A DNA stretch of 64,000 bases from a virus (taxonomy: Duplodnaviria > Heunggongvirae > Uroviricota > Caudoviricetes): IMG/VR virus record IMGVR_UViG_3300031555_002904; one strand, 5' to 3'. Each line of letters opens with the position of its first letter. The stretch's first letter is position 1. Of this stretch, positions 1-64,000 are shown one piece after another. Below the pieces are notes generated by a model that was not told the origin of the DNA, made no database searches, and was given only the letters and a program-made list of their open reading frames with translations. A program made the position numbers and the translations under genes.

Positions 1-1200
1 GGCTCCATAAAAATAAAATGGATCAGTGGAAGTAAAACTGATTGAACCACTCATAGTACCGCCACTTAATGGTAATACTTGATCTAAATAAGCAATTTGA
101 TGATGATGGTTAAAAGTAGTACGATTTGAACCATTCGCAAAATATAATTTATCAAACTAATGACTATAATAAAAAGCACCAAAAGCAGCATCACTCTAAT
201 ACCAAGCAATACCTGTCATCCAACCGCTAACATCAGCACCAGCATTAGTAATTTCAGGTAAATTTTTATTACCATACAACATTCGCAAATGAAATTTTCC
301 TTCAGCCATGTCATAAAAATTATTATAATCATTAATACTACGAATTTCAACTGTAGCTGTAGTAGCTGACTAGCCAGACACATTAATATTCCAAGTACCA
401 GAAGCTCCTCCGCCTGTTAGAGTTGGAGAATATGAATTATAATTGCTACTATCTAATACTCTTTTCCAAGGCTTTCCCACGCAAGCGCTTGAGTTAGTTC
501 TATACCATAATCCGTTACTATCCTATACTCCAAACGCTAATTGACTAATCCAATCAGTATTACTTCCTGCTCCCCAAGCCATACTTAACCCATGTATCCA
601 TCCTGCAGCTCCACGAGGATTATCTTCTGCTGCGTGAATCATAGCAGCAGCAAAACCTTGTTTAGCAAGGTCATTAAAAGTTACAGTAGAAGAACCTCCC
701 ACATTATTTGAATTATATACTTTAATATAATTATTTGAACCAGATGCAGGACATGCCCAATTACTATAATTTGCAGAAGTTAAAATTGGTTTCCAATCAT
801 TCCATGTTGTAGTATTCTTTCTTGAGCGTACTGCCATTCCGCCACTACCAGCACCATCATCTATCCAAAGCTATGCTCCCCATCCTGATCCTTGCCCAAT
901 AGAGAGTACGGCACCATCATTTTTAAGTCCAGTAATATCACTTCCAATCCAAGTTAATTGCATTCCATTATTTAAAAAAGCATCAATATCAGCATCAGTA
1001 TTTAATTTTGTCGCATTTTTATTTAAAATAGAAGCTCGACCAACATTCATATTTGCTGGAGTAATATAATATATATAATTATCTGATCCAATACAAGCAA
1101 TTTTATTTACACTTGTTTTTGCCGTTGCTGCTGAAGTATATAGCCATTCTGATTTTAAATATTTTCCTTCAATATGGCCATCAACTTTTAACGTTCCCAT
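1..1200 (-). CDS. Tail fibre / receptor-binding protein A (runs off the window end; code 15)
   Basis: Track ORFs 871..1200 and 523..837 are one frame interrupted only by TAG (5 in window); the frame stays open to base 1. Starts MGTLKVDG after an AGAGAAAGGAG RBS; contains fibre motifs YSPTLTGGGASGTW and LPLSGGTMSG. Confidence 0.8.
391..445. repeat. 55-bp segment shared by fibre A (391-445) and fibre C (5741-5795)
   Basis: 51/55 identical; encodes NYN.YSPTLTGGGASGTW. Confidence 0.85.
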
Positions 1201-1256
1201 ATATAAAATCTCCTTTCTCTCAAAGAGTATAAATCTATTTCTATATTATATTATTT

Positions 1257-1328
1257 TTCCTAAAGCATTTTTTTTCTTCTGGCCAGAAGAAAAAAAAACT
1301 CATATATGATTTTTTATATATAATTAGA
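1257..1328. promoter_or_regulatory. Divergent putative late promoters centred on a 28-bp palindrome
   Basis: TTTTTTTCTTCTGGCCAGAAGAAAAAAA between back-to-back fibres A and B; carries the GGNC motif found upstream of other late units. Confidence 0.55.
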
Positions 1329-1370
1329 AATATAACTCTTTTTATTTTGAGAGAAAGGAGATTTTATATA

Positions 1371-3158
1371 ATGGGAAAATTATAGATTAATGGGGATTTG
1401 CTTCTTGCAGCTGGTAATGAAGATCGCTTTTTAACATTTAATTACACTGGTGGAACTGGATATGATTGGCGCATAGGTTATTTAGGATCTGGTGCAGGTA
1501 ATGAAAACTTTTTAGTATTTTAGAGCGATAAAGAAGGTAGCACCTTTTATAATGCTTTAAAATTTGGCTTAACTACATTAAATGCTGAGTTCGGTGGAAC
1601 TGTAACTGCTTCATCATTTATTGGTAATTTAAGTGGTAATGCGTCTACTGCTTCCAAGCTATCTGCGGCACGCACTTTCACTATTGGAGATAGTAGTAAA
1701 TCTTTTGATGGTAGCGGGAATGTGTCTTGGACATTAGCGGAGATAGGGGCTTCTGATAGGACTTTATTATTAGGTAATTCTAAAGCGATTTGGATTGATG
1801 GAAATGCAAACACTTATTATCCTGTTTATATTAATATGGGGCACGGTGGTATTTTATTTGGATGGGAGACTTTATCAATATCTCGCCGATATAATGACAG
1901 TGCGCCCAATAGCTGGAATACATCTACTCATAGGGGCGGTTTAACTTTTACACTGCGATGGAGTGGTGACTCAGGATGGGGCGGAAATGATCATAATATT
2001 ATGGTTGAAGAATTTAGTGAAACTTATTCTACAATGGTTGGTGGTATGACATTATCCGTTGATGGACTAATAGTTTGGTTGCGCGGCGGCGGAGCAAGAT
2101 ATTACTTGAGTAGTCCATATGGCTTAGCTGCTTATGCAACTGTTTATTATGACGGATATACTGCTGGTGATGGGCGCACCTATTCTGCACGCAGTTATAA
2201 TGCAGATACTGTAGCAAGTGAAATTCATTCAAAATGGCTTGTACGACCATGGGGAATATTTGCTGGAACCGCATCTAATGCTGATACTATTGATGGACAT
2301 CACTTTAACTGGGATGGCAAAGGTGGGCAGCCCACTTGGCTATGGGGCGCTAATGAATATGGTAATAGCTATGTGTATAATCCAGCTAATTTTAGTGTAA
2401 ATTATGCTAATAGTGCTGGAAGTGCAGGTAGCTCCACAACTACTTCTTATCCAGCGGGATTTGTTTAGAGGGCATCCACATCAGATTGGGGTACTGTGCG
2501 AACTGGCTTAATTACGGAGTGGGATGCTGGCCCAAACAGTAATAAAGGCGCAGTGGCTTTTATGGCATATCCGAGTGCGAATGAAGTTAGTGTTAAAATT
2601 GATGGTTATTTTTTCTAGAATGAAGGTAATAATAGGGTATTGGATATTGGAGATATTCCTGTTAACAGTGCTTCAGCATGGTTAAATACTTCTGGGTGGT
2701 ATAAAATCGCTACAGTAACTAAATACAGCGGAAATACTGGCCCTTTATCTGTATTATTAATTATTGGAAAGAACTATTCATATTCAACTAGTGATATGTT
2801 TACTATTTTAGTTCAAGGCGGTTATTATAATACATAGTTTATTCCTCTTGGACATTGTGATAATGGCCTTGATTGCTTTACTTATATTCGTTCCACTGGA
2901 GATGGGGCCGCAACTGGATTTGACATTGAAGTATATTTAAATACTCCTTCTGGAGGTAATAATTTTTATGTTAAAGCTGTTGCGCTAATCGGTAATGTTT
3001 CTTGTCATGCATTTGCCTCACCATCTGGGTCAGTAATGAAAACTTATCAAATTCAAAATTGTACCCATAATGGAACTTTTGGTACTACTGATCCAGCTTC
3101 TAATCCCTCTGCGATTCCTGGCTATGGTGAAACTGGTGCAATTTATTATAAAATTTAA
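1371..3158 (+). CDS. Tail fibre / receptor-binding protein B, 595 aa (code 15)
   Basis: ATG 1371 after AGAGAAAGGAG; 5 in-frame TAG join track ORFs 1722..2468 and 2640..2837; TAA at 3156-3158. G/S/N/W-rich, GNLSGNASTAS and NFSVNYANSAG shaft motifs, ends GAIYYKI. Confidence 0.82.
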
Positions 3159-3173
3159 TTAAATAAAAAAAAT

Positions 3174-3213
3174 AAAGGCGAGATATTGATTAATTTCAAT
3201 ATCTCGCCTTTTT
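3174..3213. terminator. Bidirectional intrinsic terminator
   Basis: Perfect stem AAAGGCGAGATATTGA-ttaatt-TCAATATCTCGCCTTT flanked by A and T runs, between convergent genes. Confidence 0.85.
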
Positions 3214-3222
3214 ATTGTTTAA

Positions 3223-3633
3223 TTAACAAACAGGAGTGATTTTATTCAAACTAACTTCTGCTTCAATCTTATTAGTGATATAAGCAGTTAAGTCGCCATA
3301 AATCTCACTTAAATATTTCTTTGCATCATCAGTTAATACTGTCATAACAGCATTAAATGTCAAATCAAAAGCTTCTTTTTGAGCTTCTTTAGTAAATGCA
3401 TTTTCCTTCTTTAATGCGTCAACATATGTCTGAGTAGTAGCAATAACACAAGCACAAATAGTATCATCGAGCATTGCGATGTATTTATCCGCAGTATCAT
3501 TATCAACCTTGTTTTGAATTTCTGCACTTTTTGCATTAATAAACTTTACCACATAGGCAGTTAATACACCTAATAGAGGAATAACACATACTTGTAAAAT
3601 TTCATATAATAATGGTAACCATTCCATAATCAA
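3223..3633 (-). CDS. Phage holin (LL-H-like)
   Basis: 136 aa, single N-terminal hydrophobic helix (ILQVCVIPLLGVLTAYVV) followed by a charged helical body ending ITNKIEAEV; no TAG. Confidence 0.7.
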   Translation of the reverse strand: MIMEWLPLLYEILQVCVIPLLGVLTAYVVKFINAKSAEIQNKVDNDTADKYIAMLDDTICACVIATTQTYVDALKKENAFTKEAQKEAFDLTFNAVMTVLTDDAKKYLSEIYGDLTAYITNKIEAEVSLNKITPVC

Positions 3634-3821
3634 TCTTCCTCTCCAGTATGATCAATGCCCATCAACTTATCTACACATTCAGTAAGGCTATTAATCATTT
3701 CTTGTAACCAATGGTCGCTTAAATCAGACCATTCTTTTACTTTTTTAATATAGGCGTCTTGCTCTTTAATTTGGCGCTCAAGTACTTCAATACGAGCTAA
3801 TAATTCTGCATTGGTAGGCAT
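3630..3821 (-). CDS. Small coiled-coil protein upstream of the holin
   Basis: 63-aa ORF with AAAGGAG RBS, overlapping the holin start. Confidence 0.65.
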   Translation of the reverse strand: MPTNAELLARIEVLERQIKEQDAYIKKVKEWSDLSDHWLQEMINSLTECVDKLMGIDHTGEED

Positions 3822-3918
3822 TTTTAATTCTCCTTTACTTCATTAAAATTCGGATTTTATTCCGTATTATTTATAAAATTTTAATATTAAATAACAAATG
3901 AGGTTTGACCAATTTAAA

Positions 3919-4512
3919 TTATCCGCCACACTATTTCCAATTAGTACCATCAACGCATATCCAAGGAATGCATTGTTTCCAATTAGTACCATCAACACAA
4001 ATCCAAGGTAATGCTCGTTGCCAGTTTGTCCCATCTGTATTTATCCATACCGTATTACCATCATAAGTTGCATAAATGCTACAGCTGGTCATAAGATAAC
4101 AAGACCATACTGCATCTGGATACCAAATATAAAAATAATAAGTAGTATTAGGTGATAACGATAAATTCTAAATATTAAAAGTTACTGTTGAAGTAGCCTA
4201 ATATACGGTTCTTGGAACAACTACTGTAGTTGTGCGAGTCTATTTTTTTAAAGTGTCAAAACTTGTAATTTTTGTAGATGTAATAAGTACATTATAAGTT
4301 TTCTAAGAAGTTGCTGAGCCGCTATATTTATCATAAGCATCAAAAGTAATGCTTAAGCTTGTTGTTTTGCCACTAGACGGAGTTACAAACGGAATACCGC
4401 AAGCATAAAAAACAGAGTATTCAGTTTCATATCCGAACCATCGCCGGTCATCTCTGCCATTAGAGTGACATGGAACATAATTATCTTGTTGTGCTATATT
4501 TCCACTTTGCAT
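3919..4512 (-). CDS. Small adhesin-like protein with three C-terminal Trp repeats, 197 aa (code 15)
   Basis: ATG 4512 (AAGGGAG RBS), 5 TAG, TAA 3919-3921; ends WINTDGTNWQRALP/WICVDGTNWKQCIP/WICVDGTNWKQCGG. Confidence 0.75.
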
Positions 4513-4525
4513 AATATTTACTCCC

Positions 4526-6601
4526 TTATCCAATAGTCTAATAATAAAGCGTGCCAACTCGAGCATTACCACTAGGTTGATTTGCACCAAAATTGTGACA
4601 AGTATCTCCAGCATTAACTTTAATACCTATTTCGTATCCAACATCAGAAGGAATAGTATCCCAAAATCCATAATTCTAAATAGAAGAATACCATTGATAA
4701 GATTCTAAAACAGTAATGTTTGCCTAAGAATAATTAACGTATTTCATCCACATGGTAAAATTACCAGTACTCTCATTATAATAGGCTTTAAAATCATCAA
4801 TTCCATAAGGGCAAGAGCCATTATAGTTTAAACTTCCAACAAGAGGGGCCAAACCAGCGCTATTAACATCTAAAGTTAGACTAAAAATTCCAGTGCCCTA
4901 ATATCTAGATGAAATTGCTAATACTAACCGAGCATTTCGCCATCCCCCAAGAGTCTCTTGGCAAATTTTTACCCATTTTCCATTGTGAGTGCCAGGTTCG
5001 CCCCACATCGCAGTGGTTGATGTAAGTCTATTAGCTGTAGAAGCCTATCCTGCCGTGGTAGCATAATTTGCGGTACCTGTAAAATAATTAGCATGAATAG
5101 TCGCATCACCATTTGGTCCTCCAAAAACAAATTTAGTTGGAATAGGTCTAGCATCTGTTGCACGATATCCCATATAAATTGTTGAATCTATATAGTTATT
5201 AGTGCCACCGAAATTAATTTCATTATTTTTCTCTGCTACAATACTCATAGTTCCATCACCTATGTTAATATGACTATGAGATTGTGGTTTAAAAGATTCT
5301 TCACTTATTTCAGTTGAATCACTTGGTAAAATTGTATTAAATTGTGCAGTATGAACCCAATTATTTACATATCTACCATTTAATAAAGAAACATCCCAAT
5401 AACCATAACTATTTCCACCATATACTGCAACATATAAATATAATCTATTATTTGTAGCATCTTTATATAAATAAAATGTTCGTTTTATTTTTCCTCCTAT
5501 TTGCACTCTAGAAGTAGAATAACCAAAACCACCATTAGTATCACTCTATACTGTAATTAAATCAGATGAAGAATGCTAATTTCCCCAAAAAGAACTGCTA
5601 ACGCATAACACCCAACTCTAAAATTCAGAACCAACTTGAAAATATCCAAGTTCTAAAATATGTGTATCAGCATCTGCGTAAAATCCTCCCCATGCTGTTC
5701 CATTATAAATAAGAGCTGATGCACCAGTAATGTTAATACCCCAAGTGCCAGAAGCTCCTCCGCCTGTTAAAGTTGGAGAGTATAAATTATAATTGGCAGA
5801 AGTTAGTAAAGTATGCCATGGAATATCAGTTAAAGTAGCATTAGGTTTTTGTATTCCTCTAATTGCAAATCCGTACTAACTACTTCCTGCAATTTGCATT
5901 TTACACACACCATCATGAAAATTTACACATCCGTAATATCCATCCCAGGGTTTTGCACCAGAAACTGTCACTTCATTTGATGCACGTACTTCAAAAAATC
6001 CGTTAAAAGTCAAATTATCAATATTATAAGAATTTCCAACATCTTCCCGAGTGAGTGTGTAGAAACCTCCATTATTAGGTGTTAAAATTTTATAATTAGT
6101 ACCATTTTTACGATGATATATATCAGTGTTATAGGTCTCAAGATAAATACTTTTTCCACTATTACCAGACCCGTAAACTGCCAAAAACAATCCATCTGAT
6201 GAATTAGCAGCTAAATATGCATCTGTATTAATGTTTGTAAATCTTAAAGCATATTCAGCTTTTAATATAGCAGAATCTCCATGAAAATTAATACCATAAA
6301 CATCAGCCCATCTAACAGTTGGTCCACCTAAATTATAAATGGCATCTCCTATTGGATAAAAAGTATTACTATTCATGCGAAAACGAGGTTCTGCCTAAGT
6401 GTAAAATACTAAATCATTATTATTCGCATAACCGCTGCTAGCCATTCCACCAATACCAGCCCATTTAACTGAACTATCACTAGCATTTAAAAATTTTATG
6501 CCTGGACCCCATCCAGTCGAATTGTAATTTAATGTTTGATGAAGTACCAAAGGCCAACTCTAACCATCGAGGTTAGATACATTAATTTTTAAAGCACCCA
6601 T
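4526..6601 (-). CDS. Tail fibre / receptor-binding protein C, 691 aa (code 15)
   Basis: ATG 6601; 11 TAG join track ORFs 5876..6376 and 5045..5506; TAA 4526-4528; starts MGALKIN, ends GTLYYQTIG. Confidence 0.82.
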
Positions 6602-6805: not shown

Positions 6806-7138
6806 ATGTCAGATTATGGCGTAAAAGACATAAAGACGCTTGAAGGCATCGAAGCGATTAGACTTCGTCCTGGTATGATAGATTATTGTATTGAGCATCA
6901 GTATGAACTTCCACGAAGATTACAATATTATGCTAAATATTATCCAAATGTATCATTTTCCCAAGCATTGGAGTTATATTCTTTGTCTGTTCGAGAGGTT
7001 ATTGTTCTTTTCCAAGCCAAACATTTATTTGACGCTTCTTTAAGTTTTGGTCGTGGTCTTATTTATGCAAGAGACAAATGGCTTGAAAAAATGTCCCAAG
7101 CAGAAAAAATTGCGGCCGCATACCTACTGGCGGAATAA
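6806..7138 (+). CDS. Chimeric ORF: original GyrB residues 1-24 fused to 86 unrelated residues
   Basis: MSDYGVKDIKTLEGIEAIRLRPGM matches the GyrB N-terminus, then diverges exactly where YIG is expected; strong AAAGGAG RBS. Confidence 0.75.
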   Translation: MSDYGVKDIKTLEGIEAIRLRPGMIDYCIEHQYELPRRLQYYAKYYPNVSFSQALELYSLSVREVIVLFQAKHLFDASLSFGRGLIYARDKWLEKMSQAEKIAAAYLLAE

Positions 7139-7185
7139 GGGTCAGTTTCACCGATTTCGTCCCGGCATTGGTCCGGAATGGAAAA

Positions 7186-7214
7186 TTGACTTTTATCAAT
7201 TTTTATGATATAAT
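7186..7214 (+). promoter_or_regulatory. sigmaA promoter for the GIY-YIG gene and the repaired gyrB
   Basis: TTGACT-17 nt-TATAAT with extended -10 TG. Confidence 0.85.
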
Positions 7215-7235
7215 AGAAAGGTAAGGTGAATTTCT

Positions 7236-7988
7236 ATGTATCAAATTTATAAAATAACTAATCAAAAAAATGGAATGGTCTATATTGGTTCATCAATTGA
7301 AGTTGAACGCAGATGGAGACAACATAAAGAAGCTTCCATTAATGAGAAAGACCATCATTATAATTATCCTTTAATGATTGCTTTTAGAGAGTTCGGTATT
7401 GATAATTTTACTTTTGAGATTATTGAAACTCTACCTTCTTGGGAAGAGATGATTGAAGCCGAACATAATTGGATTGTAAAAGAAGATTGTGTAAAACCAA
7501 AAGGCTACAATCAGACTGATAAAACTGATAGCCCAATGTTTGATCCCTCTATCGCAAAAAAAATGAGTGATACTAAACGAGTTAAATATGGTAAAAAAGT
7601 TTGTGAAATCTCTTCTAATAAAGAAATTGTCGGAGCATGGAATTCGTTAGCAGAAGCTGGTGAAAACACGGGTCTTGACCGATTTAAGATTAGTGATGTG
7701 TGCAATGGCCGACGTTTAACCACCGGAGGTAGAGTGTTTAGATTTACTGATGAAGAAGGTAATTTAATTGAACCTGAAATAAAAGTAAATAAAACTCAAA
7801 CCAGTAGAATTACAAAATCCAGTAGGAAAGTTGTAAAAATGAATGATAATAATGAAGAATTACAAGTTTATGATAGCGTAGCACGTGCGGCCGCAGATAA
7901 TAATTGCGACGCAAGTGCCATATCAAAAGTTTGTAACGGTTCAAGAAATAAATGTGGAGGTTTTAAATGGAAATACCTAACAATGTAA
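7236..7988 (+). CDS. GIY-YIG homing endonuclease with two C-terminal NUMOD1-like DNA-binding repeats
   Basis: YQIYKITN...VYIGSS...RWRQH N-terminus; repeats WNSLAEAG...ISDVCNG...GGRVF and YDSVARAA...ISKVCNG...GGFKW. Confidence 0.9.
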   Translation: MYQIYKITNQKNGMVYIGSSIEVERRWRQHKEASINEKDHHYNYPLMIAFREFGIDNFTFEIIETLPSWEEMIEAEHNWIVKEDCVKPKGYNQTDKTDSPMFDPSIAKKMSDTKRVKYGKKVCEISSNKEIVGAWNSLAEAGENTGLDRFKISDVCNGRRLTTGGRVFRFTDEEGNLIEPEIKVNKTQTSRITKSSRKVVKMNDNNEELQVYDSVARAAADNNCDASAISKVCNGSRNKCGGFKWKYLTM

Positions 7989-9886
7989 ATAATGCTGAAT
8001 ATGGCGTTAATCAAATTAAAACCTTGGAAGGAATTGAAGCAATTCGTCTTCGTGCGGGAATGTATATCGGAAGTGTTGGACCCGAAGGTGTCAGACACAT
8101 CACACTCGAAATCATTTCTAATGCAGTTGATGAATATTTAAATGGACATTGTACTCATTGCACCATTGACGTTGGAGAAGATGGCGTAATTTGTATTCAT
8201 GACAATGGTCGTGGCGTTCCTTTTGGCAAGGCTGAGGATGGTAGTGAAGTTTTAGTTAATGTTTATACCAAGCTTCATACTGGTGCAAAGTTTGATAGCT
8301 CTGGCAAGACTGGCTATAATACCTCCGGTGGTATGAATGGTGTCGGTGCTAAAGCAACAAATGCATTGTCTGAAATTTTTACTGTTGTATCTTATCGTGA
8401 CGGTAAAAAGGCTACAGCCGAATTTGCTCGTGGCGAGTTATTAAAATATAATGAAGTACAAGATCCCAATCAAAAAGTTACCGGCACAGCTATTATGTTT
8501 AAACCAGATGCCACCATTTTTAAAGAAGGCATTATGCTTGAATACGCTCCTCTCAAGAAGCAAATCCAAGAGTTAGCTTACTTATCTCCTGGCTTAGTAT
8601 TTGAACTAAACTATAAAGACACTAAAGAAACTATTACTTCTCAAAACGGTATTCGTGATTACATTAATGACCTAAACGATGGTAAAAATAAAGTAACTTC
8701 TGTATTCTATACTGAAAGTATGGAAGATAGAATTGGTGTAAAAATTGCTATGCAATATAATGATACTTATACTGATATGTATCGCTTATATACCAACTCC
8801 ATTCCCAATAGTGCGGGAACCCACTTGACCGGTTTCAGAACCGCGCTCACTTCTACAATCAACGAGTATGCTCGTGAAAAAAAGCTACTCAAAGAAAAAG
8901 ATGCCAATATTACTGGTGAAGAATTGAAGGAAGGTTTAGTTCTTGTCCTGTCCTTCATTATGCCTGACCCTGTTTTCTCCGGTCAGACAAAGGATGTTCT
9001 CTCCAGTAGTGAGGCTCGTACCGCAGTACAACGATTGACCGCAAGAGAAATTAAAGTTTGGCTTGATGCAAATCCAAAAGATGCCAAAGCAATCGTAGAT
9101 AAGGCTCTTCTGGCTCGTGCGGCCCGTGAAAAGGCAAAGAAAGCCAAGGAAACCGTGCGGAAGGTCGATAATAAGCGGCGTGTACTCTTACCTGATGTAT
9201 TGAGTGATGCCAACTCTAAGGATCGTCACCTCTGTGAAGTATTCCTCGTTGAGGGTAAATCCGCTGCCGGTACTACAATCGAAGCTCGTGACCGCAATAC
9301 CCAGGCTGTTTTCCAGCTTCGTGGTAAGATTTTGAATGTTTTGAAAACTGATTTACATAAGGCTCTTCAGAATAAGGAAATTAGCGGTATGATTGACGCC
9401 TTCGGTTTGGAAGTTAAAGATGGTAAGGTTATCGTTGATGAATCTAAGCTGAGATATGGCAAGATTATTATCACCGCGGATGCTGATGTCGACGGAAGCC
9501 ACATTCGAGTCCTGTTCCTTACATTCATTTGGAAATTCTGTCCCGAGCTTATTGAAAAGGGATATATTTATGCAGCAGTACCTCCTCTATATAAAGCAAC
9601 ATATGGTACCAATATCAAGTATCTCGTAAATGATGCTGCGCTCAATGAATTTAGAGCTGGTATGAAGAGATCTTTTGAGCTGGGTCGTATGAAAGGCTTA
9701 GGTGAGATGGACCCAGATGAAATGGCTGAAACTGTTATGAATGCTAAGACTCGTATTCTTAAACAGATTACTATGGAAGACGCAGCAGCAGTCGCGCAGA
9801 CATTTATGAGTTTAATGGGAGAGTCGGTTACGCCCAGAAAGAAGTTCATTGAAGAGAACTCTTGGAGGGCTAATATTGATGTCTGA
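7967..9886 (+). CDS. gyrB: DNA gyrase / type IIA topoisomerase subunit B
   Basis: EIISNAVDE, DNGRGVP, GGMNGVG (GHKL ATPase); VEGKSA, LRGKILN, DADVDG, KGLGEM (TOPRIM). Confidence 0.97.
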   Translation: MEIPNNVNNAEYGVNQIKTLEGIEAIRLRAGMYIGSVGPEGVRHITLEIISNAVDEYLNGHCTHCTIDVGEDGVICIHDNGRGVPFGKAEDGSEVLVNVYTKLHTGAKFDSSGKTGYNTSGGMNGVGAKATNALSEIFTVVSYRDGKKATAEFARGELLKYNEVQDPNQKVTGTAIMFKPDATIFKEGIMLEYAPLKKQIQELAYLSPGLVFELNYKDTKETITSQNGIRDYINDLNDGKNKVTSVFYTESMEDRIGVKIAMQYNDTYTDMYRLYTNSIPNSAGTHLTGFRTALTSTINEYAREKKLLKEKDANITGEELKEGLVLVLSFIMPDPVFSGQTKDVLSSSEARTAVQRLTAREIKVWLDANPKDAKAIVDKALLARAAREKAKKAKETVRKVDNKRRVLLPDVLSDANSKDRHLCEVFLVEGKSAAGTTIEARDRNTQAVFQLRGKILNVLKTDLHKALQNKEISGMIDAFGLEVKDGKVIVDESKLRYGKIIITADADVDGSHIRVLFLTFIWKFCPELIEKGYIYAAVPPLYKATYGTNIKYLVNDAALNEFRAGMKRSFELGRMKGLGEMDPDEMAETVMNAKTRILKQITMEDAAAVAQTFMSLMGESVTPRKKFIEENSWRANIDV

Positions 9887-10109
9887 GTATCATGGATACT
9901 GGTTTTATGGGTTGAGAAATGATGAAATTATCCAAGCAAAAGATTTAGCTGAAGAGTATTGTCTTTTGAATTGTCCCCAGGAATATGATGGGCCATTCAC
10001 ATATGAAGCATAGGTGATTCGTTATCGCCTTGCCAATCCAACCCTAAGTCGCGATTTCAATCAAATGCTAAAAGATATGGAGAAATTTTATTATGGCGAA
10101 TGTAATTAA
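9879..10109 (+). CDS. Hypothetical protein, 76 aa (code 15)
   Basis: ATG overlapping the gyrB stop; one TAG; TAA at 10107. Confidence 0.6.
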
Positions 10110-10329
10110 GATCGCACCTTGCGATACAGTTCTCGTCACTATTGGCAATGATGTTGATCTTGATGAATATAGAGCTATTGCCGATCGCTTCATCGAGAAT
10201 CTTCACACATAGAATGTAATTCTAATGCCAGAATATGCAGTAAAAGATATTACAGTATTCAAGCGTGAGCTTACTGGCACGAGTAATATGTTTTTGAATG
10301 GAGGATGCCTATATGAGTAGTCTTACTAA
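10093..10329 (+). CDS. Hypothetical protein, 78 aa (code 15); probable paralog of the next gene
   Basis: MANVIKIAPCDTVLVTIG..., two TAG, tightly packed between neighbours. Confidence 0.55.
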
Positions 10330-14064: not shown

Positions 14065-14088
14065 ATATATGTAATTGAGGAGAAATAA

Positions 14089-18054: not shown

Positions 18055-18055
18055 T

Positions 18056-53540: not shown

Positions 53541-56500
53541 TTATACCTCCCCAGTATAATTATACTCAATATTAGCCAATCCAAGAGCAGAGGGGCCGTT
53601 AATTGCAACATCTGTCCATCCAGTAGGAGCTTCTGCAAATGAAGTATAGGCAGTTATATTAGATCCATAAGACATAAAAGCATTTGCTTCAATGGATGTA
53701 ACAGTATCCCAAATAAAGATACTCTTAATAGAAGAATGAGCACCAGTTAAACCCGCATTAGCGAAAGCATAAGTACCAATATAACTTAATCCAGAAGAGG
53801 ATCCAATTTCATTAGCTTGCTTACCAAAATTCGTAATTTGAATATTAGGACATTGCATGAATGCTGCCATTTCTATTTTTGTAATATTATCTGGTAAGGC
53901 AGATAATGTTACATTCTTTCCTGCTCCATAGAAGCTACTATCTTTTACAATAGTCAATTTAGAAGGTAAATTGGCAACATATAGAGCCTTAGTGTTATAG
54001 AAAGCACGCGTTCCAATATACACAAGATTATCACTCAAATGTCCTACGATACCATCTTTCGCATATTGCTCACTTACATGTTCCAATCCTTGAACACCAT
54101 TAAAAGCACTGTCTCTAATATACATAACTGACTCTGGTAAATATACACCTTTTAATTTAATATCAGCGCTATGCATATCAGTTTTAAATGCCTCAGTACC
54201 AACTTCATAGAAGAAAATGTTATCCATAAAGAAAATACCAGTAGCTCTTAAAGCGCTAGTAAAATATCCCATAGAAACAATAGGTAAGCCATTATGGGTT
54301 GCAGGAATAGTAATTTTACCCTTTAAATCATAGGCACTACTTGTTCTAATCTAATAACCTTCTACGTTATTTACAGTAACAGGTCCAATAAATTCAAAAT
54401 ATTTTTCATCAGTTGCTTTACTATAAACATTCTCTTGAACAAAGACAGCATAGAAGTTTCTATTTTCAATGGCTTTTACTGCCGTTACATCAATTACCAA
54501 CTTGGCGGCCGCCTCCTCAGAAGGCGCCACAGGGTTAGTTTGATATTTATCAGACCAGCCATAGAATGCCAAACGCTCTGTTAATGGCAATGATTCTTCA
54601 TCCGCCTCTCTACTTGGTACTTCAGCAGGCTCATAGAAATATTGACCATAAATGACTGTTGGCTTTTCTCCCAATTCAACATCACCATTATAGAATGTTG
54701 CAGTGTAGCTATCCCAATCAAATACTGCATATAAAATATGAGTCATTTTAGAGGTGCTAAATGTTAAAGCTTCAATTTCTTCATTACTTAAAACTTCTCC
54801 ATCTTCAGTTAGGCTCCAACCCTTAAAGTAGTGATGTAGTCTAGACGGATTTGCTTTAATATCTGTCACTTTAATAGGAGTAGTTGAACTCTTATCATAC
54901 TTTACAGATTGCAATTCAATAGTTTGTTTTGTACCTGCCTCTGCATCAGTAACAATTTCAACCATTTTTAGAGTATATGCAGGATCAACATTCGCAACAA
55001 AAATATTTAAATCGGGATAATAAGTATCCATAATCTATTTAATTTCAAATTCAGAAATTTTTGAAGTACTTGGGTTATTAATAAAAATATCACCAGATAA
55101 ATATGGATAAGTTGGACGGTCATCACCATATTCAGTAATATCTCTAAAATAGTTAGTATCACGATTTGCCAAATTCTCTTCGCCAATAAATAAGTTAATT
55201 AAACTTAAATCAGTTAAGCAATCTTGATCATTTAAAGCATCAGGCAATACTTCATATACCAAAGCATTTAATGTATTTTGATCCCAATCAGCATCTGTGG
55301 GAGTATAAGGAACAAATGTAGAATTCTCAGTTTTTAAAACATAAGATTTCTCATTATTTTTAGCTACTCCAGATTCAACTAATTTATAAGGAGACCATAA
55401 AACTTTTTCTAATGCTATAGAAATATTCTTTTGAGCATTGGTAAATTCAGCAGAGGTCTGCATAGTTTTCTTAATATCAACTAAATTTTTCATTAATTGA
55501 TAAGAACTATATCCCATATTGCCGCCAACAACTTGCAATTTTTCAATACCAGTAGAAGCATTTAAATTACCTGTGGAAGTGATACCAGGAATATAAAGAC
55601 CAGGTACAAAATTACCCTTAGCATCTTTCCAATCGCTCTCACCTTGAATTAAACCTTTTAATTTAATTGGCTCAATAAATGTCAAGTGTGCGATTGTATT
55701 AGGCAAGTGTACAATCTCCATTTGACCACCGTCCGCAAATGATACACCAGTAATAGTTGTTCCAAGAGCACGGAACTCTTTTAATTTTTCTGCACCAGTA
55801 ACATCAATAGCGCCAGTTAAAGATTGAACATTGGTTAAAATTACTTGCTCAAGTAGAGCTTTTGTATTCTCGTTAGGAGTACCATCTGGATTTAAAGCAC
55901 TAGCACCTAAAGTAAAGACTTTTAAAATACCATTATAAAAACCAGGAGTATCATTACCCACGCGTACGTCTCTTAAGCGCTTTAAAGCAGTTAAATACAA
56001 TTCATCAGGATACTTTAAACTCAAATCTCCAAGAGAAGAAATGTATTCGCCACCGCCAATATAGAATAACTGTTGAGTTAAACCTTTATAAGTTTCAACA
56101 GCAGTTTGTTTTTCCGCAGTTAGTTGTAATTTATTTGGATTTTTTCCATCCCACTTCTGTGGGAATGTCATCATAGTTTTATCAAACCATAAAGAATTGT
56201 ACTATTGTAAATATGGAGTAACTTCAAAAGTTAAATCCGCATCAAGTGGATGTGGATAAGTATATTGTTCAAAACCTGTATCTTCAGCAGTAATCTCTCG
56301 ATTTAAGTATTTATCAGAAGTACCACCATAGTTGGCATTACAACGAATCTGTAATTGAGAAACTGCGCCCTCATAAGCATAAGTATCTCCCAACCATTTA
56401 CTATCAATATAATTAAATCTATTTCTCAAGAATAAATCTCGATGTAATTGACGACTACCCTATAAACAATAGAAGCGCTTACCCTCATCTTTAGATATAG

Positions 56501-59500
56501 TGCCACTAGTATTAATGTAACCACTAAAAGTAGGAGCAATATATTTCCAATATTGATCAACATTAATAATATTAACGGGACGATGACCCATCATAGCGTA
56601 AGATCCACTTACATTGGCATCATAGTCATAATAACCTTTTAATTTTTCATATTTTAAGCCATTCTTGCGAATATCTTGATAGTAAGATTTTGCAGTATCT
56701 AAGAAACATTTTTCAAAATTATACCACAATACACTACCTGCGGTAGAGAAAATACCACCTTCGGTATTAACAATAGGAGATGGTTCGACATCATATTCCC
56801 AAGAAGGTACACCTGAATTATTAACACCTAATTGAGTATCAATATCGTAGAAGATAGGATACCAGATATAATTACCACCGACCTCTTGAGGTCCCCATGT
56901 AGCCAACATCATATTCTTACCACGAGAGTCATATAATAGTAACATTTCAGTCATAATAAAATAGATTGCACAATATTCCTAATCAAACCATTTATCAAAT
57001 TCATTAGCAAACTTGGCTAAACGATATTCAGCACTGTCTGTCGTATAAGTCTAACCACCAGCAGTATAAGGTTCAATAGGTTCATTGGTTGGTGCCAAAG
57101 AATTGGTAGATTCTAACCACTCAGCCACTTTACGTAGGTTATCATATTTACTCAATAAGAAAGTGTTAATTTCAGTCTAAGTTTTATTAGCAAAATCATT
57201 TTTCTTATCCAGAGCGTCATCAATATCATCTTCATCAACGTGATAACGATATTCAAAATCATTTAATACAGCCAATTTACCCTCATCATCTACTTCATCA
57301 AAATTAGTGACTGTAAATGATGTGCGGCCGCCTTGGTTATTTAGTAGCTCCCAGCATTCAGCAACATCTTTAAAAGTTTTGCCTTCAACATAAGGATGAG
57401 CAGTTTCATCTTCAAATCCAATAACATTATTACAACCTTTATCAAGATTATAATTGTAACGACCAATAAATTCATAGCTGCCATCTGCTTTCTTTTGGAA
57501 AACAATCATTGGGAAACCATAAACCGTAGTGCGGCGATCAGTTACATCAATATCAGGATCATAATCTTGCAAAGGATGTTTACTATATAAAGTCTTAACA
57601 AAACTAGCATAGCCCGTATTATGAGTCATAGAACTTTCCATATAATCGGCTTTCCAAGTAAATGTAGTTTCAGAGTAATGATTATCCATATAGAATCCTT
57701 TATACTCTACTCCTTCATACTCGTTCTTTTCACCGATTTCTTTACCTGCAAGAGGGCCATCAGTATATTTCCAAGAATTATCATCCTTCTTCTTGAATTT
57801 ACCTTTATAATTACGACGAGGATAACCTTGAGAAGATGTTCCTTGAACGTCAAACTCAATATTAGTAGCTGTATAACTAGGACATCCCATTAAGTATTGC
57901 GCACCAGTAATTAATTTATTTTTATAGGCATAATCCAAAGAAGGGTTGACGAAAGTTACATTAACTTTCTTTTTACCACCTTTAATATAAGGTAATAAAT
58001 CCTCGGTTTTATCTACACATTCCAACACTGCATAAGCCTATAATGGACTTTCTGGATGTGCATCATTATAATCTCTCATCTTAGTATAACTAATTGATGG
58101 GATATTATCTTTAAATTCAATAATTTGGTTCATATCATATAGCTCAGCGCTATTTTGATCGGCAATATAATTATGAACCACATCAGCGCTTGATAAAGCA
58201 GCCTAATAAATACGAACTTTATATAAATCAACATCACAATAATTTGAGTTAATTACTAAAGTTTTTACGCCACTAGCAAAAGAATCACTAGTTTTATCAT
58301 AATTAATAATAGAACTCATAATGCCATTAATATACATATAAATCAAAGGATATTGATTGGTTGCAGCAGCTTTTTCAGCAACAAAACTTACAGTTAAAAT
58401 TTCGTCTTCTTTATAACGACCAGAAGCAATAACCTGCTTAGATTTAAAGAAACCTTCTTGAGTTCCTAAGCACATGCCAATTTCATTATCATAATAATTG
58501 CACCATACACCGTCAGTAGATTTAACAGTTTTAGTAACTTTAACTTCTACAGTATTGCCTTCTGCGTCTTTAATTTCCTCAGAAGTAACCTCAATTAAAT
58601 TTTCATACTTTTGGACATTTCTTAATTTGAATTGAATTTCAAAAGTTAAGTTAGTATCCAAATCACGAGTATTCATAACACTAACAGGAATTTCAATGGA
58701 AGCACCATTACTAATTCTTAATACTGAATCCCCAGTAGCCAAATCATTAACCCAACCATTGTTATACCAGTTAAAATTATTAAACTTAACAACAGACTTT
58801 GTTCCATCACTACGTTCAAAGAACCAGGTTTGGCGTTCAGTCTCGTTTTCTGAATTACTTCTACCAACAGAAGTTAGATTTAAATATAAATCACTAGTTA
58901 AAATATCTAAATCTCGTAATTCATCTTCTTCTACATACAAAGATACGCTAGCAGAGGTAGTGCCACACATTAAAGTAAATGTATTTTCGCCCACCTCATA
59001 ATTGGAAATATTCCAATTTAACCAGGTAGTTTCACTATGAGCGATATTATCCAAGCTAGCAATCTCATTATTATTAATCCATCTACGAATTGAAGTACGA
59101 TCAGGAGATGCTGGATCATAAACCATATATTGGATATTTAGTTTATCATGGTTAGTAATTTTCTCTGGGACATTATTAAACCAAATAACAGGAGCATCAT
59201 TATTAGGTTCCAAAAAGACAATTTGATAAATCAAAGGTTTTGTTGCAATAGTGGTAACACCAGTATTATAAGTTAACTCAGCCTTCAATGTGTAAACACC
59301 ATGTTTCTTTTTTGGAATAGTTACAGACATAGATTGTTCATTATCTGTTGCAAGTAAATCCTTACAGGCGCTCTCTTCCAAAACATCATCAATATATACA
59401 TTTAATCTTTTCTTTACTGTGCCTACTGGAATAAAATGAAAACTCATATCAGAGTTATAGGCATATTTTAAAGGATTGAAATTAGAACTTTCTTTTAATG

Positions 59501-60218
59501 CTAATTCAATACAAGAAATTGAACCATATTGTAGTTGATTGGTACCAGAGTTGCTACCAATTGCCTCTACGACTAATGTATTCTAACCTTTACCAAGCAC
59601 ACTACCCAGATCAAAATTATGAGTTTCTCCTGAACGGACAGAAAAGGAATAAGTGTTAGATTGTTCTGTTGCGACATTGGTAACATGATAATTTAAAATT
59701 AAAACAGAATCATGTGAAGCACCGACAGAAAAATGTATAAACTATGGCTATTCAAAAATGTAGGTTTGCGCATTGGGAGCAGTACCTTCACAAGCCAATT
59801 CTACATATTTACCATCGCCAGTGTCTCCACCGCCGCCACCACCAGAACCCCCTCCGCCGCCAGTTCCACTAACAGCAATACGACTACATTTCAAAATACC
59901 AGCACTTTTATTATAAGAACGAACTTTATAGAAAGTACCATTAGAATTGATAATTAAGTCGTCTTTTTTAGGAGAAGCGTCTTGATCTTCTAAATCAGCA
60001 AAATAAATGATATAACTTAAATCAGTTAAATCTTGACTAACACTTGCGGCAGTTGCATATAGAACAGAAACTCCACCACCACCAACTGGAATACGCTCAC
60101 TCGCGGTATCCAAAAACATTTCACCAGTGTCAGTAGCAAAATATAAATTACCTTCAATAATTGCCTATGCTTGAATAGTATCACGCTTACCCTAAATAGG
60201 AATGAAAGGTGTATTCAT
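53541..60218 (-). CDS. Giant structural protein, 2225 aa: LamG-like domain, CotH-like kinase domain, InlB-B-like repeats, BspA-type LRR (code 15)
   Basis: Eight track ORFs share one frame separated only by TAG (14 by my count); QGTSSQGYPRRNYK, KADYMESS..HN, DSRGKN, PIFYDID; FKGWS and FYGWS; I...AF LRR repeats. Confidence 0.8.
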
Positions 60219-60368
60219 ATGAAGTGTTCTCCTTTCTCTCAAATAATTTTTTTTGTATAAAAGAAAAAAGGGACGAAAGAGATAACTCTTTCGCCCCTTA
60301 AGCCTTTATATTTTATCTCTCATAGAGATTTCAATTTTTTTATAAATTAATGATTATTTTTTGTCCAA

Positions 60369-62735
60369 TTAAGTAGCTGGATCAAAACTATCCCAAACCA
60401 TATTAATGGTCATAGTGTTGCCAGAAGCCTCAATAGTCAAATTAGAAGAAGCAGAAGTCACAGTAATCTGACCTAAGTCACCTGCAGTACCATTACCATT
60501 CAAAGAAGTTAAGTTAATATTGGCAGAAGCTGTACCAGCAACATCAGCTACACTCAACTTACCCTGCAATTCTGCCTTATAACCAGACTGAACATGGACC
60601 CACTCAATATCAGCAGCGGCCAAAACACCCTCAGTTTCAACAGCGTCTTCTTTAGCAGTGGCAATTAACAAATCACCAGCATAGCACTTTACTGCAGCAG
60701 TACTAGAATTATTGTCCAAATCCAGATTTAAAGCTAAATTAGATTCAGCAACAACATAAGTGTCACCAATATGAGCATCTTTTACTTTTACAGCATCCCA
60801 CTCATCAGCAGTAGAAATACCATCAATATAAGTTAAAGAATTAGCTGCATTAATTTTTCTTTCAATTTCAGCATTTAAATCAGTTCTTAATTGAGTATCA
60901 GCAGCTTCGCGATCTTCAATTTCTTTATCAAGATCAGCCTGCTTAGCATAAGTAGAAGCAGCATTCTGCAAAGCAAGAATATCAGTACCATGAGTCTTAA
61001 TAGTACCCTCAGCAGTACTTAAACGAGATTCTACATTAGCATTAGTAGTAGCCTGATCAGAATCCACTTTCTTCAAAGCATCAATTTCATCATTGATATC
61101 ATTGATTGCGCCCTCATTGGCAGCGGCTTTAGCAGCAGCACCATCAGCAACACCACTTACTGCGCTAATCTCATTAGCATTTGCAAGAGTCTTTTCATCG
61201 ACTTCTTTAATAGCACCATAAACAGTAGAACCAGCAGTGCCCTTAGTGCCAATATTTTGATTAATTAAATCAATAGCAGCAGCATTGTTAGCAGTCTCTG
61301 CATATAAACCAGAAGCAGCAGTGCTTCCAGACTTTGGAGCACCAACGGCAGTTTCTAAATTACCAACCTTAGTACTCAAACCATTAACAGTACTTTGATC
61401 AGCCTTGCCGCTTAAAGTGTTATTAATAGTAACAATATCAGCCTTAGCTTGATTTGCAACAGTCTCAGTAGCCTTCAAACGGCCCTTAATACTATCAGCT
61501 TTTTCATCATTACCAATAGCATTTTCATTAGCTTGTACTCGGCCTTCTAAAGCTTCGATATCAGCATCAACTAAAGTGTCTTTTGCTTGTAATTGAGCAA
61601 TATCATATTTTACTGTACCTGCGGTATTGGCATCACCAATCGCACCATTAGCAGCAGCTGCAGAATTGGCAGCATTTAAAATATCTTGTCTAATAGTTGG
61701 TAATTCATCATTAATTGCTTTTACATCAGCTTTAATCTCGGTATCAGCATTCTCTAACTTTTGAATTCTAGTTTCATGATCAGTCTTGGCAGTTTCCAAA
61801 GGAGTCAAACGACTCTTTACGCCAGCCAAGCCATCTTCTCCCTGCAAAGCCTCAATAGCTGCATTAGTAGTGGTATCAGCAGCCTTTAACTTAACAATAT
61901 CCTCAGCATTAGTGTTTGCTTTATTTTCTACTGCAGTAGTTCTAGAAGCCAAGCCATCAATGCGACTATTAGCAGTAGCGATGCTACCGTTTTCACCATC
62001 AATAGCGTCCAAACGAGTCTCATGGTCGTCTACACTATCCTGTAAGCTATTTAACCAAGGATAAACAGCAGCCTCACCTTCAGCACGAGTGCCCATGTTG
62101 GTTTCTAATGTAGTAACACGACCCTCATGATCTAAGATATCAGTAGCAGCATCAGTTTTCCAAGACTCTAAAGCTTCAATACGGTCAACCAAACCACCTT
62201 CATCATCTAAGCGGCCAACTAAAGTATTTAACTGCTCAGTCAAAGAGGCGCCTTCGCCACTTCCTAGACCTGTTAATTCATTTAATGCATCGACAGCATC
62301 TTGCAAATCTCTCAACCATACAAAAGCAGCTTTTTCGTCAGTTTCCTTGGTACCAACTTCGCCGCGCAAACCACTAATAGCATTAGCATTAGCAGTAATG
62401 TTGCCAGACAATTCAGCAGATTTAGCAGTAAATTCTGCTGCAGTAACGTTAATAACCAAGAACTTATCTGTAGAATCATCCCAACGGATTAAAGCACCCT
62501 GATCCGCAATGTAATAAATTACATCAGTAGAATAAGGTGGCTTAGTTGCTTCAGCAAAAGCAGTAGTACTTTCATAGAACTGAACAACACCTTGAATTCT
62601 CTTAGGAGCTTTTTCTGCGTCTACGCCTAAATATAAAGAGCCCTCATCTTTAGTGAAATAAATTGCACCAACTTCAGAAGTAGTCATTTTGACTAGATTT
62701 TCATGAGAACCCCATTTAAAATTCAAATTAGCCAT
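60369..62735 (-). CDS. Long coiled-coil tail/whisker-like structural protein
   Basis: 788 aa, heptad-rich A/D/T/N/E body, GAIYFTKDEGSLYLG N-terminus; no TAG. Confidence 0.7.
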   Translation of the reverse strand: MANLNFKWGSHENLVKMTTSEVGAIYFTKDEGSLYLGVDAEKAPKRIQGVVQFYESTTAFAEATKPPYSTDVIYYIADQGALIRWDDSTDKFLVINVTAAEFTAKSAELSGNITANANAISGLRGEVGTKETDEKAAFVWLRDLQDAVDALNELTGLGSGEGASLTEQLNTLVGRLDDEGGLVDRIEALESWKTDAATDILDHEGRVTTLETNMGTRAEGEAAVYPWLNSLQDSVDDHETRLDAIDGENGSIATANSRIDGLASRTTAVENKANTNAEDIVKLKAADTTTNAAIEALQGEDGLAGVKSRLTPLETAKTDHETRIQKLENADTEIKADVKAINDELPTIRQDILNAANSAAAANGAIGDANTAGTVKYDIAQLQAKDTLVDADIEALEGRVQANENAIGNDEKADSIKGRLKATETVANQAKADIVTINNTLSGKADQSTVNGLSTKVGNLETAVGAPKSGSTAASGLYAETANNAAAIDLINQNIGTKGTAGSTVYGAIKEVDEKTLANANEISAVSGVADGAAAKAAANEGAINDINDEIDALKKVDSDQATTNANVESRLSTAEGTIKTHGTDILALQNAASTYAKQADLDKEIEDREAADTQLRTDLNAEIERKINAANSLTYIDGISTADEWDAVKVKDAHIGDTYVVAESNLALNLDLDNNSSTAAVKCYAGDLLIATAKEDAVETEGVLAAADIEWVHVQSGYKAELQGKLSVADVAGTASANINLTSLNGNGTAGDLGQITVTSASSNLTIEASGNTMTINMVWDSFDPAT

Positions 62736-62755
62736 TATATTACTCTCCTTTTAAA

Positions 62756-64000
62756 TTAATTAGTTAATCCGTGCCAAGTTAAACGATCTTCAATTGCTGT
62801 AAATCTATTATTAGCAGCGGATACGTGATCATTAATAGAAGTTTCTAAAGCACTTACTTTACTGCTCACCGCAGTGACAGTAGAAGCATCAGCTTTAAGT
62901 GCTAAAACCTCATCAAGACCAGTAACTTTTGAATAATCAATTGCCTTAATAGACAAATGACCATCTTCAACATTTAATTGATTAGTGTCAACGGTTTTAA
63001 TAAACAAAGCATCTAATAGCTTATTATACATTTCATCAGTTAAATTGTTTTCAGAAAGTCCAGGGGTGGTAGCAGCATTTTTATTTAACCAATCCTCCAA
63101 GCCTTGAACATTCTCAACATTAACTGTACCAGAAATACCAACATTACCAGTCTCTTCATCAATAACTAGCTTTGCTAATTTTCCCTAATCAGTAGGACTT
63201 AATAAAGTCCAACCTTCGATCTTATCAACCTTACTATTTAAAGTATCTTGTAACCCAGTAACTTTATTGATAGTAAAAGGTTTTAAAGTTAATTGTCTAT
63301 CAATACCTTCTTCACTAACAACTTCAAAATCATTAGATACAGAATTGATAATATTTTTTTCTGCATTTACATTAACAGCTTCTAATTTTTCAGCTTCAGC
63401 AGCTGTAATTAAACGTTCACCATCCGCTTTATCAACCTTTTTGTTTAAGTCACTCTTCTTAGCATAATCAGTTAAATCGACTTCCCAAGAACCAACTTTT
63501 TCAACCACTTGAGTACCAGCAATGGTGACAACCATATACTCATCATACTTATCAGTATCAAAAATTTCATCGGCAGGTACCATAAAAATATATTGTTCAG
63601 CATCAGCATTTTCAGCCATATACTGTTCAATATCTGCTACACTACCAACAATCTTTCTCTTTAAATGAGCAGCTGCCGCAATCTTCGCGTCGGTTTCAGC
63701 CTTAGTATAAGCATCAACAGGAGCTTTCCAAGAGATTGAGCCATCAGATGCAACAGTTAATACCGTACCTGCGGCCGCTCCTTCTAATCCCTTTAAACTT
63801 AGTTCGCCAGTTTCAGAATCAACTACAAAAGCTTTATCATCAATAACTAAAACGAACTCTTCTACAGACTCCCCCGCAATAGGAGCTAAACTATTATCGG
63901 GCTGAATTACATATAAAGTAGCTTTATTATCTTCAACTACTACTAAAGTCTGACCATAATAATAAACAGACTCAGAGCTTCCAACCTCTTTTGCCAATGC
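62756..64000 (-). CDS. Structural tail protein (5' end outside the window; code 15)
   Basis: Track ORFs 63185..63997 and 62756..63100 are joined by TAG 63185; I.KV.GL...L..K repeats; DKYDEYM...EKVG motif. Confidence 0.7.

Follow-up and report, generated by a model that had tools for sequence, protein, structure and literature searches.

In-frame TAG read as glutamine in a fragment of a large animal-gut phage

Are the TAG triplets that interrupt many genes in this stretch of phage DNA stops or sense codons and, if the latter, which residue do they specify and how might they be decoded? The window (the whole stretch analysed, 64 kb) covers part of the genome of a large phage found in the faeces of ruminants and other animals. 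Faecal runs X1-X6 contain the phage at full word share, and none of the sequencing runs listed with it was an RNA run. The phage contig measures 73.9 kb, is 41% complete and carries no terminase; the full genome probably reaches 150-200 kb or more. Twenty kilobases of the window had no megablast match among GenBank phages, a tblastn search of GenBank phages with a 2233-residue marker protein returned unrelated records (the best 27% identical across 59% of the query), an IMG/VR single-protein scan with the same protein found nothing, and an Rfam search of the window yielded nothing meaningful. As a whole, the data are best explained by a large animal-gut phage which reads TAG as glutamine (code 15), and we regard this explanation as very likely.

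In-frame TAGs number 91 and are found in 25 of the window's 53 ORFs. Frames are broken by TAG alone, never by TAA or TGA. ORFs of at least 300 residues cover 0.39 of the window under code 11 and 0.70 when TAG is treated as sense, far above the controls in which TGA (0.43) or TAA (0.48) is freed instead; the comparison of coding densities proposed in an earlier note on this DNA favours recoding, with a pattern stronger than chance would give. The same note held that no gene requires TAG as its stop. This is true of all 52 complete ORFs, which end in TAA (36) or TGA (16), while two genes, at 3919-4671 and 4526-6601, are ambiguous: in each the last TAG sits three codons ahead of a TAA and, judged on sequence alone, may be the true stop.

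The late genes include the following.

1..6601, both strands: TAG-rich cassette of four tail-fibre-like genes, at 1-1200 (minus), 1347-3158 (plus), 3919-4671 (minus) and 4526-6601 (minus); 27 TAGs in all
42776..44512, minus strand: 578-residue tail-fibre-like protein; 7 TAGs
48358..50559, minus strand: 733-residue fibre-like late protein; 9 TAGs
53541..60242, minus strand: 2233-residue virion (tail-associated) protein with C-terminal BspA-type LRR; 14 in-frame TAGs
60369..62735, minus strand: 788-residue late fibrous protein; 22 Gln codons, no TAG

The 6.7-kb frame at 53541-60242, described earlier as eight joined collinear fragments, is real, the number of fragments being only approximate: code 11 cuts it into 15 pieces, seven of them at least 100 residues long. 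Its product has 1186 full-length homologues, and its matches to Pfam LRR_5 and to PHROG families cross several TAGs. In the fibre cassette, the tandem repeat at 3919-4020 is present as reported, with a unit of 13 residues and two minus-strand copies which read AAT TGG AAA CAA TG and AAT TGG AAA TAG TG. The N-terminal motif MGxLK(V/I)NG of the 578-residue protein is common to the cassette paralogues, and the nearest relatives, L127-L129, lack the stretch from -298 to 7996 in window numbering.

The replication and early genes are comparatively poor in TAG.

6806..16080, plus strand: TAG-free early genes for a GIY-YIG endonuclease, GyrB, RNase H, GyrA and NAD-dependent DNA ligase
16775..17764, plus strand: GIY-YIG nuclease of 329 residues, with a membrane anchor and a Q/E-rich coiled coil; 12 TAGs
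17978..18946, plus strand: thymidylate synthase ThyA; one TAG, at codon 102 (IY-TAG-KP)
22586-23647 and 24730-25218, plus strand: replicative helicase DnaB in two ORFs; TAG at codon 13 of the first
27430..29169, plus strand: RecJ-like DHH exonuclease; TAGs at codons 15, 21 and 100
30916..32097, plus strand: RecD/Dda-like SF1 helicase; TAG at codon 9 (LTAK-TAG-EE)
32158..36051, plus strand: DNA polymerase III alpha, DnaE/YorL-like; one TAG, at codon 59, in the PHP domain
36183-36842: guanylate-kinase-family gene, among the replication genes that would need one to three read-throughs
36915..39134, plus strand: anaerobic ribonucleotide reductase NrdD; TAGs at codons 137 and 689

Reading through the TAGs restores full-length, collinear proteins in the conserved genes of the window, and all five motifs quoted in the earlier note, from the helicase, the GIY-YIG nuclease (two), ThyA and NrdD, were recovered at in-frame TAGs. 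In the nuclease these fall at codons 257 (YVG-TAG-A) and 267 (RWK-TAG-H), and at both positions the two GIY-YIG genes of the window that lack TAG use an ordinary Gln codon (YIGQS, RWRQH). The alignment of ThyA to PDB 1b02/1bko crosses the TAG, opposite which these structures have Gln. NrdD, aligned over residues 7-735 to PDB 8p23, has codon 689 (CLDCGF-TAG-GEF) within its C-terminal Cys4 zinc site; the two closest solved structures have Glu opposite the TAG, and a near relative, L120, has CAG at this codon. The earliest code-11 start of the helicase falls past the Walker A motif, and its PDB alignment begins just past the TAG, a codon which we take to match the Gln of the 'LTEGQ' motif in T4 Dda. 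The nearest DnaE is of the SPbeta YorL type (39-40% identity). Between the two DnaB ORFs lies a GIY-YIG endonuclease gene without TAG (23833-24513), and an Rfam search of this gap for intron RNA families at a relaxed threshold gave nothing meaningful.

That the TAGs might be real stops, and the genes pseudogenes, split genes or products of misassembly, is suggested by the fragmentation of these genes under code 11. Against this, the frames are interrupted by TAG and by no other stop, homologues are collinear over the TAGs, and essential genes, dnaE, nrdD and thyA among them, would be broken. The TAGs also recur in independent assemblies, one of which (L121) shares 28 of 34. Bovine and sheep runs, some of which lack contig cover over parts of the gene, place 36 of their 40 listed differences on third codon positions of the single 6.7-kb frame, the signature of one translated ORF. 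This pattern, together with exchanges between TAG and CAA, refutes the real-stop reading as far as sequence can tell, and we consider its chances negligible.

A count of Gln at TAG columns of protein alignments was dropped as circular, the database homologues having been translated with TAG as Gln, and a codon-level comparison of the window with relatives L119, L001, L120, L122 and L003, which is independent of database translations, was used instead. Window TAGs faced CAA or CAG in 60 of 120 comparisons, much as the window's ordinary Gln codons do (53% conserved), whereas its Lys, Glu, Asn and Tyr codons faced Gln at 0-5%. The log-likelihood of the TAG residue was -246 for Gln and -384 for Lys, the runner-up, a gap of about 138 units. 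In L119 the orthologue of the 2233-residue gene is 81% identical and free of TAG, with CAA or CAG in place of 12 of the 14 TAGs; the TAGs at codons 1261 and 1347 are matched by CAA or CAG in all relatives, at positions where 120 homologues invariably have Gln. Near-identical strains exchange TAG for CAA or CAG, as at codon 735 of this gene, which is TAG in the window and CAA in a sheep-gut strain (run X13). The assignment of TAG to Gln, as made in the earlier note, is therefore upheld by the codon-level test, by invariant columns and by substitution in an independent strain; the effect is genuine and has good support.

A sense codon for some other residue (Lys or pyrrolysine, Tyr, Ser, Trp or Leu) would draw on several observations. 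After Gln the best fit is Lys, and relatives have Lys (AAA/AAG), Asn (AAT) or Glu opposite some TAGs; the window's true Gln codons spread similarly. ARAGORN labels the CUA tRNAs of relatives 'Pyl' by anticodon alone, and the suppressor tRNAs of two relatives have a long variable arm like those of Ser, Leu and Tyr tRNAs. A point against the Gln reading is that the overall sequence of the relatives' suppressors is not clearly closest to tRNA-Gln. The residue test favoured Gln in relatives G001 and G005 and, on the 17 columns of G004, left Ser and Gln unseparated. Given the likelihood gap, the parity of TAG with true Gln codons, the two Gln-invariant columns and the exchanges between strains, we judge another residue very improbable; pyrrolysine decoding is not supported by the TAG columns, which behave as Gln.

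A decoder was sought on the phage's own contig and in its relatives. The 73.9-kb contig contained no tRNA, release-factor or GlnRS/GluRS gene. All seven TAG-recoded relatives examined (84-100% complete) carry tRNA(CUA) within tRNA arrays: G001, G004, G005, G006, G007 (two copies), G008 and G009. That of G006 is situated some 35 kb upstream of phoH. The standard-code relative G003 has neither tRNA(CUA) nor RF2. RF2, with the SPF motif, occurs in one of the seven recoded relatives, G001, and release-factor genes are absent from G003-G009; no GlnRS or GluRS gene was found in the five records searched for them (G000, G001, G006-G008). By analogy with these relatives, we infer that a suppressor tRNA probably lies elsewhere in the phage's genome, where the earlier note had supposed such a tRNA and/or release-factor manipulation to be encoded. 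The suppressor might instead be supplied by the host or a co-infecting element, TAG being read as Gln all the same. Many recoded phages have been published without a detectable suppressor tRNA (bioRxiv 10.1101/2021.08.26.457843), and the contig, too, is without one; it is, however, less than half complete, and all seven near-complete recoded relatives have the tRNA, so that we find a borrowed suppressor improbable.

Under the preferred reading, TAG would be decoded by a Gln-charged tRNA(CUA) that the phage itself encodes in the 59% of its genome not on the contig; this tRNA would compete with host RF1, and RF2 in some relatives would keep termination at TAA and TGA free of RF1. The distribution of TAG bears on how such a system might be used. 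TAG density is 7.2 per 1000 codons in late genes and 1.5 in early genes, a roughly fivefold difference (Fisher p = 8e-13). TAG is enriched in tail and other late genes, yet replication genes also have some, and a rule by which early genes are standard and late genes recoded is not strictly valid. The highest density of all (36.5 per 1000 codons) belongs to the 12-TAG GIY-YIG gene within the TAG-poor replication block, and the TAG-free 788-residue protein makes TAG use uneven inside the late module. A high number of TAGs per tail-fibre gene is a feature which fits a graded timer of translation. Counting TAG as Gln raises the Gln content of late genes from 2.2% to 2.9%, compared with 3.1-3.3% in early genes. 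A specific substitution of TAG for CAG in late genes (Spearman -0.60) was considered and largely rejected because late GC3 is low (0.22 vs 0.37) and G-ending two-fold codons all fall alike.

If full-length products of the late genes rich in TAG, and of the nuclease packed with it, appear only once the suppressor is abundant, recoding could act as a translational timer. Since dnaE, nrdD, thyA, dnaB, recJ, the recD-like gene and the guanylate-kinase-family gene would each need one to three read-throughs, suppression would have to work already before or during replication. That the number and position of TAGs form a graded timer and not a simple early/late switch is a tentative idea, to which we give a small chance. 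Among genes that have one, two or three TAGs, for the most part replication genes, 9 of 22 TAGs fall in the first 30 codons, compared with 15 of 193 ordinary Gln codons. No such 5' enrichment was seen in the late genes of four relatives (odds ratio 0.82), so that only the low-TAG genes of the window show the bias. Start-codon choice may be partly responsible for it; six of the nine sites are independently supported. Were the timer graded, 5'-proximal TAGs would abort translation cheaply until some suppressor tRNA exists, and the membrane-anchored nuclease would be made only at the strongest suppression.

Recoding of TAG to Gln in gut phages is already published, and the phage matches the code-15 description. 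By description only, it most closely matches the 'Agate' clade, whose genomes measure 154 +/- 27 kb (Borges et al., bioRxiv 10.1101/2021.08.26.457843). Shared features are an animal-gut origin (the window's relatives measure 154-240 kb), recoded structural modules that are scattered along the genome while replication genes vary in their use of the codon, a tRNA(CUA) in the relatives with RF2 in few members, and the presence of codes 11, 15 and 4 within one clade; 85 loci of the window's clade comprise 51 with TAG, 4 with TGA and 30 intact. Unlike Agate, the window's replicative polymerase, NrdD, ThyA and DnaB need read-through too, and one early-block nuclease gene tops TAG density. In TAG-recoded crAss-like phages, metaproteomics has given the only direct experimental proof of phage code 15 (Peters et al. 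2022, PMC9523058). There, too, TAG stands for Gln and is found chiefly in late structural proteins, but the window's lineage and replication module (DnaE, gyrase, NAD-dependent ligase) differ. phAss-1 and the proposed Phassvirus group (PMC10607447) are likewise large gut phages with TAG in many characteristic ORFs, and phAss-1 has suppressor tRNA genes, yet the megablast and tblastn searches of GenBank phages detected no similarity to the window's phage. Lak megaphages (~550 kb, Prevotella hosts, code 15 with RF2; bioRxiv 10.1101/2021.08.26.457843) share TAG-to-Gln reading, tRNA arrays and, in some genomes, RF2. In contrast, the window's relatives are much smaller, and an endolysin just outside the window, with SH3b and amidase domains and four or five TAGs depending on the chosen start, hints at a Gram-positive host.

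The window is thus a fresh example of a documented gut-phage habit; the phenomenon itself is not new, and the phage adds nothing new in principle to what was learned of code 15 in 2014-2022. Its significance is more practical. Code-11 annotation is wrong for this record and for many relatives, as the splitting of the 2233-residue virion protein illustrates. The lineage is a large, apparently common phage group of ruminant and other animal guts with no close GenBank phage. In it, TAG-recoded, TGA-recoded and standard-code members lie close together and one 81%-identical orthologue has lost every TAG, which makes the group a good natural series for following the spread of a code change across a genome.

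Under the standard code the window is fragmented, and reading TAG as sense restores long collinear ORFs. Cover by stop-to-stop ORFs of at least 300 amino acids rises from 0.39 under code 11 to 0.70 with TAG as sense, as against 0.43 and 0.48 when TGA or TAA, respectively, is freed instead. In-frame TAGs number 91, spread over 25 of 53 window ORFs, and the complete ORFs stop at TAA (36) or TGA (16) and at no other codon. Fourteen TAGs lie in a single 6.7-kb frame (53541-60242, minus strand) encoding a 2233-residue tail-associated virion protein. The earlier note had argued for TAG-to-Gln recoding from TAG-interrupted motifs and from a tandem repeat pairing CAA with TAG; each quoted motif was found in the gene to which it had been ascribed, and the repeat pair is real. 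The interruption of genes by in-frame TAG is confirmed, and its reading as recoding to Gln is supported.

Among 120 full-length homologues of the 2233-residue protein, TAG columns 1261 and 1347 hold Gln without exception, and Gln predominates at 165 and 1022. As proof such a count is circular, since these database homologues were already translated with TAG as Gln, and we therefore compared codons in the DNA of six relatives, pooling counts over five. Columns 1261 and 1347 are CAA or CAG in the relatives. Where window TAGs stand opposite a non-TAG codon in the pooled five, that codon is CAA or CAG in 60 of 120 cases; Gln codons of the window are themselves conserved at 53%, while its Lys, Glu, Asn and Tyr codons stand opposite Gln at only 0-5%. 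An empirical substitution-profile likelihood favours Gln (-246) over the next best residue, Lys (-384), and the same residue test favoured Gln again in two related genomes, G001 and G005. One orthologue (locus L119), 81% identical and free of TAG, carries CAA or CAG at 12 of the 14 window TAG sites, which implies fast turnover between TAG and CAA. Codon 689 of nrdD is CAG in another relative (L120) and lies opposite Glu in distant solved structures, the thyA TAG aligns with a Gln of B. subtilis ThyA, and two TAG-free GIY-YIG genes of the window use ordinary Gln codons at the positions (YIGQS, RWRQH) that are TAG in the recoded GIY-YIG gene.

Assembly error would also produce interrupted genes, and contigs from other sequencing runs argue against it. 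Of 34 TAGs aligned to a 99%-identical contig of a different run, 28 are kept there, and three of the remaining six sites have CAA or CAG. When contigs from four runs were compared along the 6.7-kb gene, 36 of 40 differences listed for the bovine and sheep variants fell at third codon positions of one long frame, and codon 735, TAG in the window, was CAA in a sheep run. At the level of sequence, this is the pattern of a single translated ORF under purifying selection. Across 85 loci of one lineage (L004-L082, L119-L122), the gene of about 2300 codons is TAG-broken in 51, TGA-broken in four and intact in 30.

The TAGs are distributed unevenly among genes, with late and early densities differing strongly (Fisher p = 8e-13).

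TAG usage by gene group (TAG per 1000 codons; TAG as share of Gln codons)
Late/tail genes: 7.2; 25%
Replication and nucleotide-metabolism genes: 1.5; 5%
GIY-YIG gene, 16775-17764: 36.5; 48%

Counting TAG as Gln raises the Gln content of late genes from 2.2% to 2.9%, near the 3.1-3.3% of early genes. Low CAG in TAG-rich genes was considered as a Gln-specific effect and largely rejected, as it belongs to the general low GC3 of late genes. No TAG occurs in gyrB, gyrA, ligA, DHFR, RNase H, the AAA_24 gene, both free-standing endonuclease genes or the probable primase gene (25612-26715). One to three read-throughs each lie inside conserved domains of dnaE (PHP domain), nrdD, thyA, dnaB, the recJ-like and recD-like genes and the guanylate-kinase gene; in the recD-like helicase, code 11 offers no start codon until after the Walker A motif. 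Suppression would therefore be needed for replication too.

Further features of the window
16775-17764: gene whose product combines a membrane anchor, a coiled coil and a GIY-YIG nuclease, within the TAG-poor replication block; 12 TAGs among 25 Gln codons, the window's highest density
60369-62735: 788-residue late fibrous protein that differs from its neighbours in lacking TAG altogether (22 Gln codons, with CAG making up a high share); it could have been acquired recently, or may be required before suppression becomes strong
22586-25218: dnaB as a pair of ORFs flanking a GIY-YIG endonuclease gene that lacks TAG; a search of the gap detected neither a group I intron nor any other Rfam family, and dnaB may be a split gene or hold an undetected intron
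About 1-7996 (starting at -298, in the flank): 8.3-kb block between endolysin and gyrB, comprising one GIY-YIG endonuclease gene, two small ORFs and four tail-fibre-like genes that are rich in TAG and low in GC; the nearest relatives, L127 (about 83% nucleotide identity), L128 and L129, have about 160 nt in its place, and the block resembles an inserted receptor-binding cassette

Where a gene has only one to three TAGs, these tend to sit early: 9 of 22 fall within the first 30 codons (codons 9-30), whereas the figure for ordinary Gln codons is 15 of 193 (odds ratio 8, p = 1e-4, with few sites and start-codon choice as a risk). The genes concerned are recD-like, dnaB, recJ-like, 46264-46686, 26715-27035, 30138-30602, 40197-40661 and 47696-48163. 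Six of the nine sites have independent backing as coding, in the form of orthologue codons, domain matches or tight gene packing. Late genes of four relatives do not show the bias. Given the few sites and the start-codon risk, a graded 'gate' model of TAG placement strikes us as improbable.

The window corresponds to positions 4553-68552, read on the minus strand, of a 73,884-base linear IMG/VR record. This record is a fragment of a larger phage: its completeness is 41% (CheckV), it has no terminal repeat, and inspection of its ORFs revealed no gene for terminase, portal or capsid. The DNA is present in sequencing runs from animal faeces and bovine-gut and sheep-gut metagenomes. No close GenBank phage was found for the window, the closest DnaE match being SPbeta YorL (39-40% identity). 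Four independent contigs (the record's left end, L127, L128 and L129) all stop 0.8-1.1 kb upstream of phoH, which may mark the end of the genome, a repeat or a variable site; one other contig continues past this point into an NAD-salvage cluster (NAPRTase, NAD synthase, NADAR, NMNAT-like, SPFH).

The 41%-complete contig carries no tRNA, release factor or GlnRS/GluRS gene. Relatives found through the 2233-residue marker and PhoH are 154-240 kb long, several with terminal repeats, and bear arrays of 13-38 tRNAs. Seven TAG-recoded genomes (G001, G004-G009) encode tRNA(CUA), G007 twice, and among them G001 alone has RF2 (SPF and GGQ motifs); the standard-code G003 has neither. The suppressors of G007-G009 are 75 nt long with a mismatched 1-72 pair and G73, features that resemble GlnRS identity elements, while overall sequence typing assigned no clear type to those of G001, G004 and G005. 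The mechanism, extended to the window's phage from tRNA(CUA) genes seen only in relatives, would most likely be a Gln-charged phage tRNA(CUA) that outcompetes RF1. The tRNA(CUA) genes of G001 (L113:11061-11151, 91 nt) and G004 (L115:5450-5548, 99 nt) have an enlarged variable region in which seven nucleotides reproduce a Gln anticodon loop exactly: CUCUGAA is the loop of tRNA-Gln(CUG) in G005, and CUUUGAC that of G004's own tRNA-Gln(UUG). The G001 array also includes a tmRNA gene (L113:10465-10813, ARAGORN; tag peptide AKPYRLAA) about 250 nt before tRNA(CUA).

Published TAG-to-Gln gut phages show late-gene bias, suppressor tRNAs, occasional RF2 and close relatives with differing codes (Borges et al., bioRxiv 10.1101/2021.08.26.457843), and metaproteomics has confirmed the reassignment in crAss-like phages (Peters et al. 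2022, PMC9523058). Compared by description alone, 'Agate' (154 +/- 27 kb; codes 11, 15 and 4 in one clade; RF2 in two members; cattle and pig samples; bioRxiv 10.1101/2021.08.26.457843) best fits the window's lineage, which is likewise mixed in code by its marker gene. The phenomenon itself is already published, and the window's phage adds one more TAG-to-Gln gut phage to those described.
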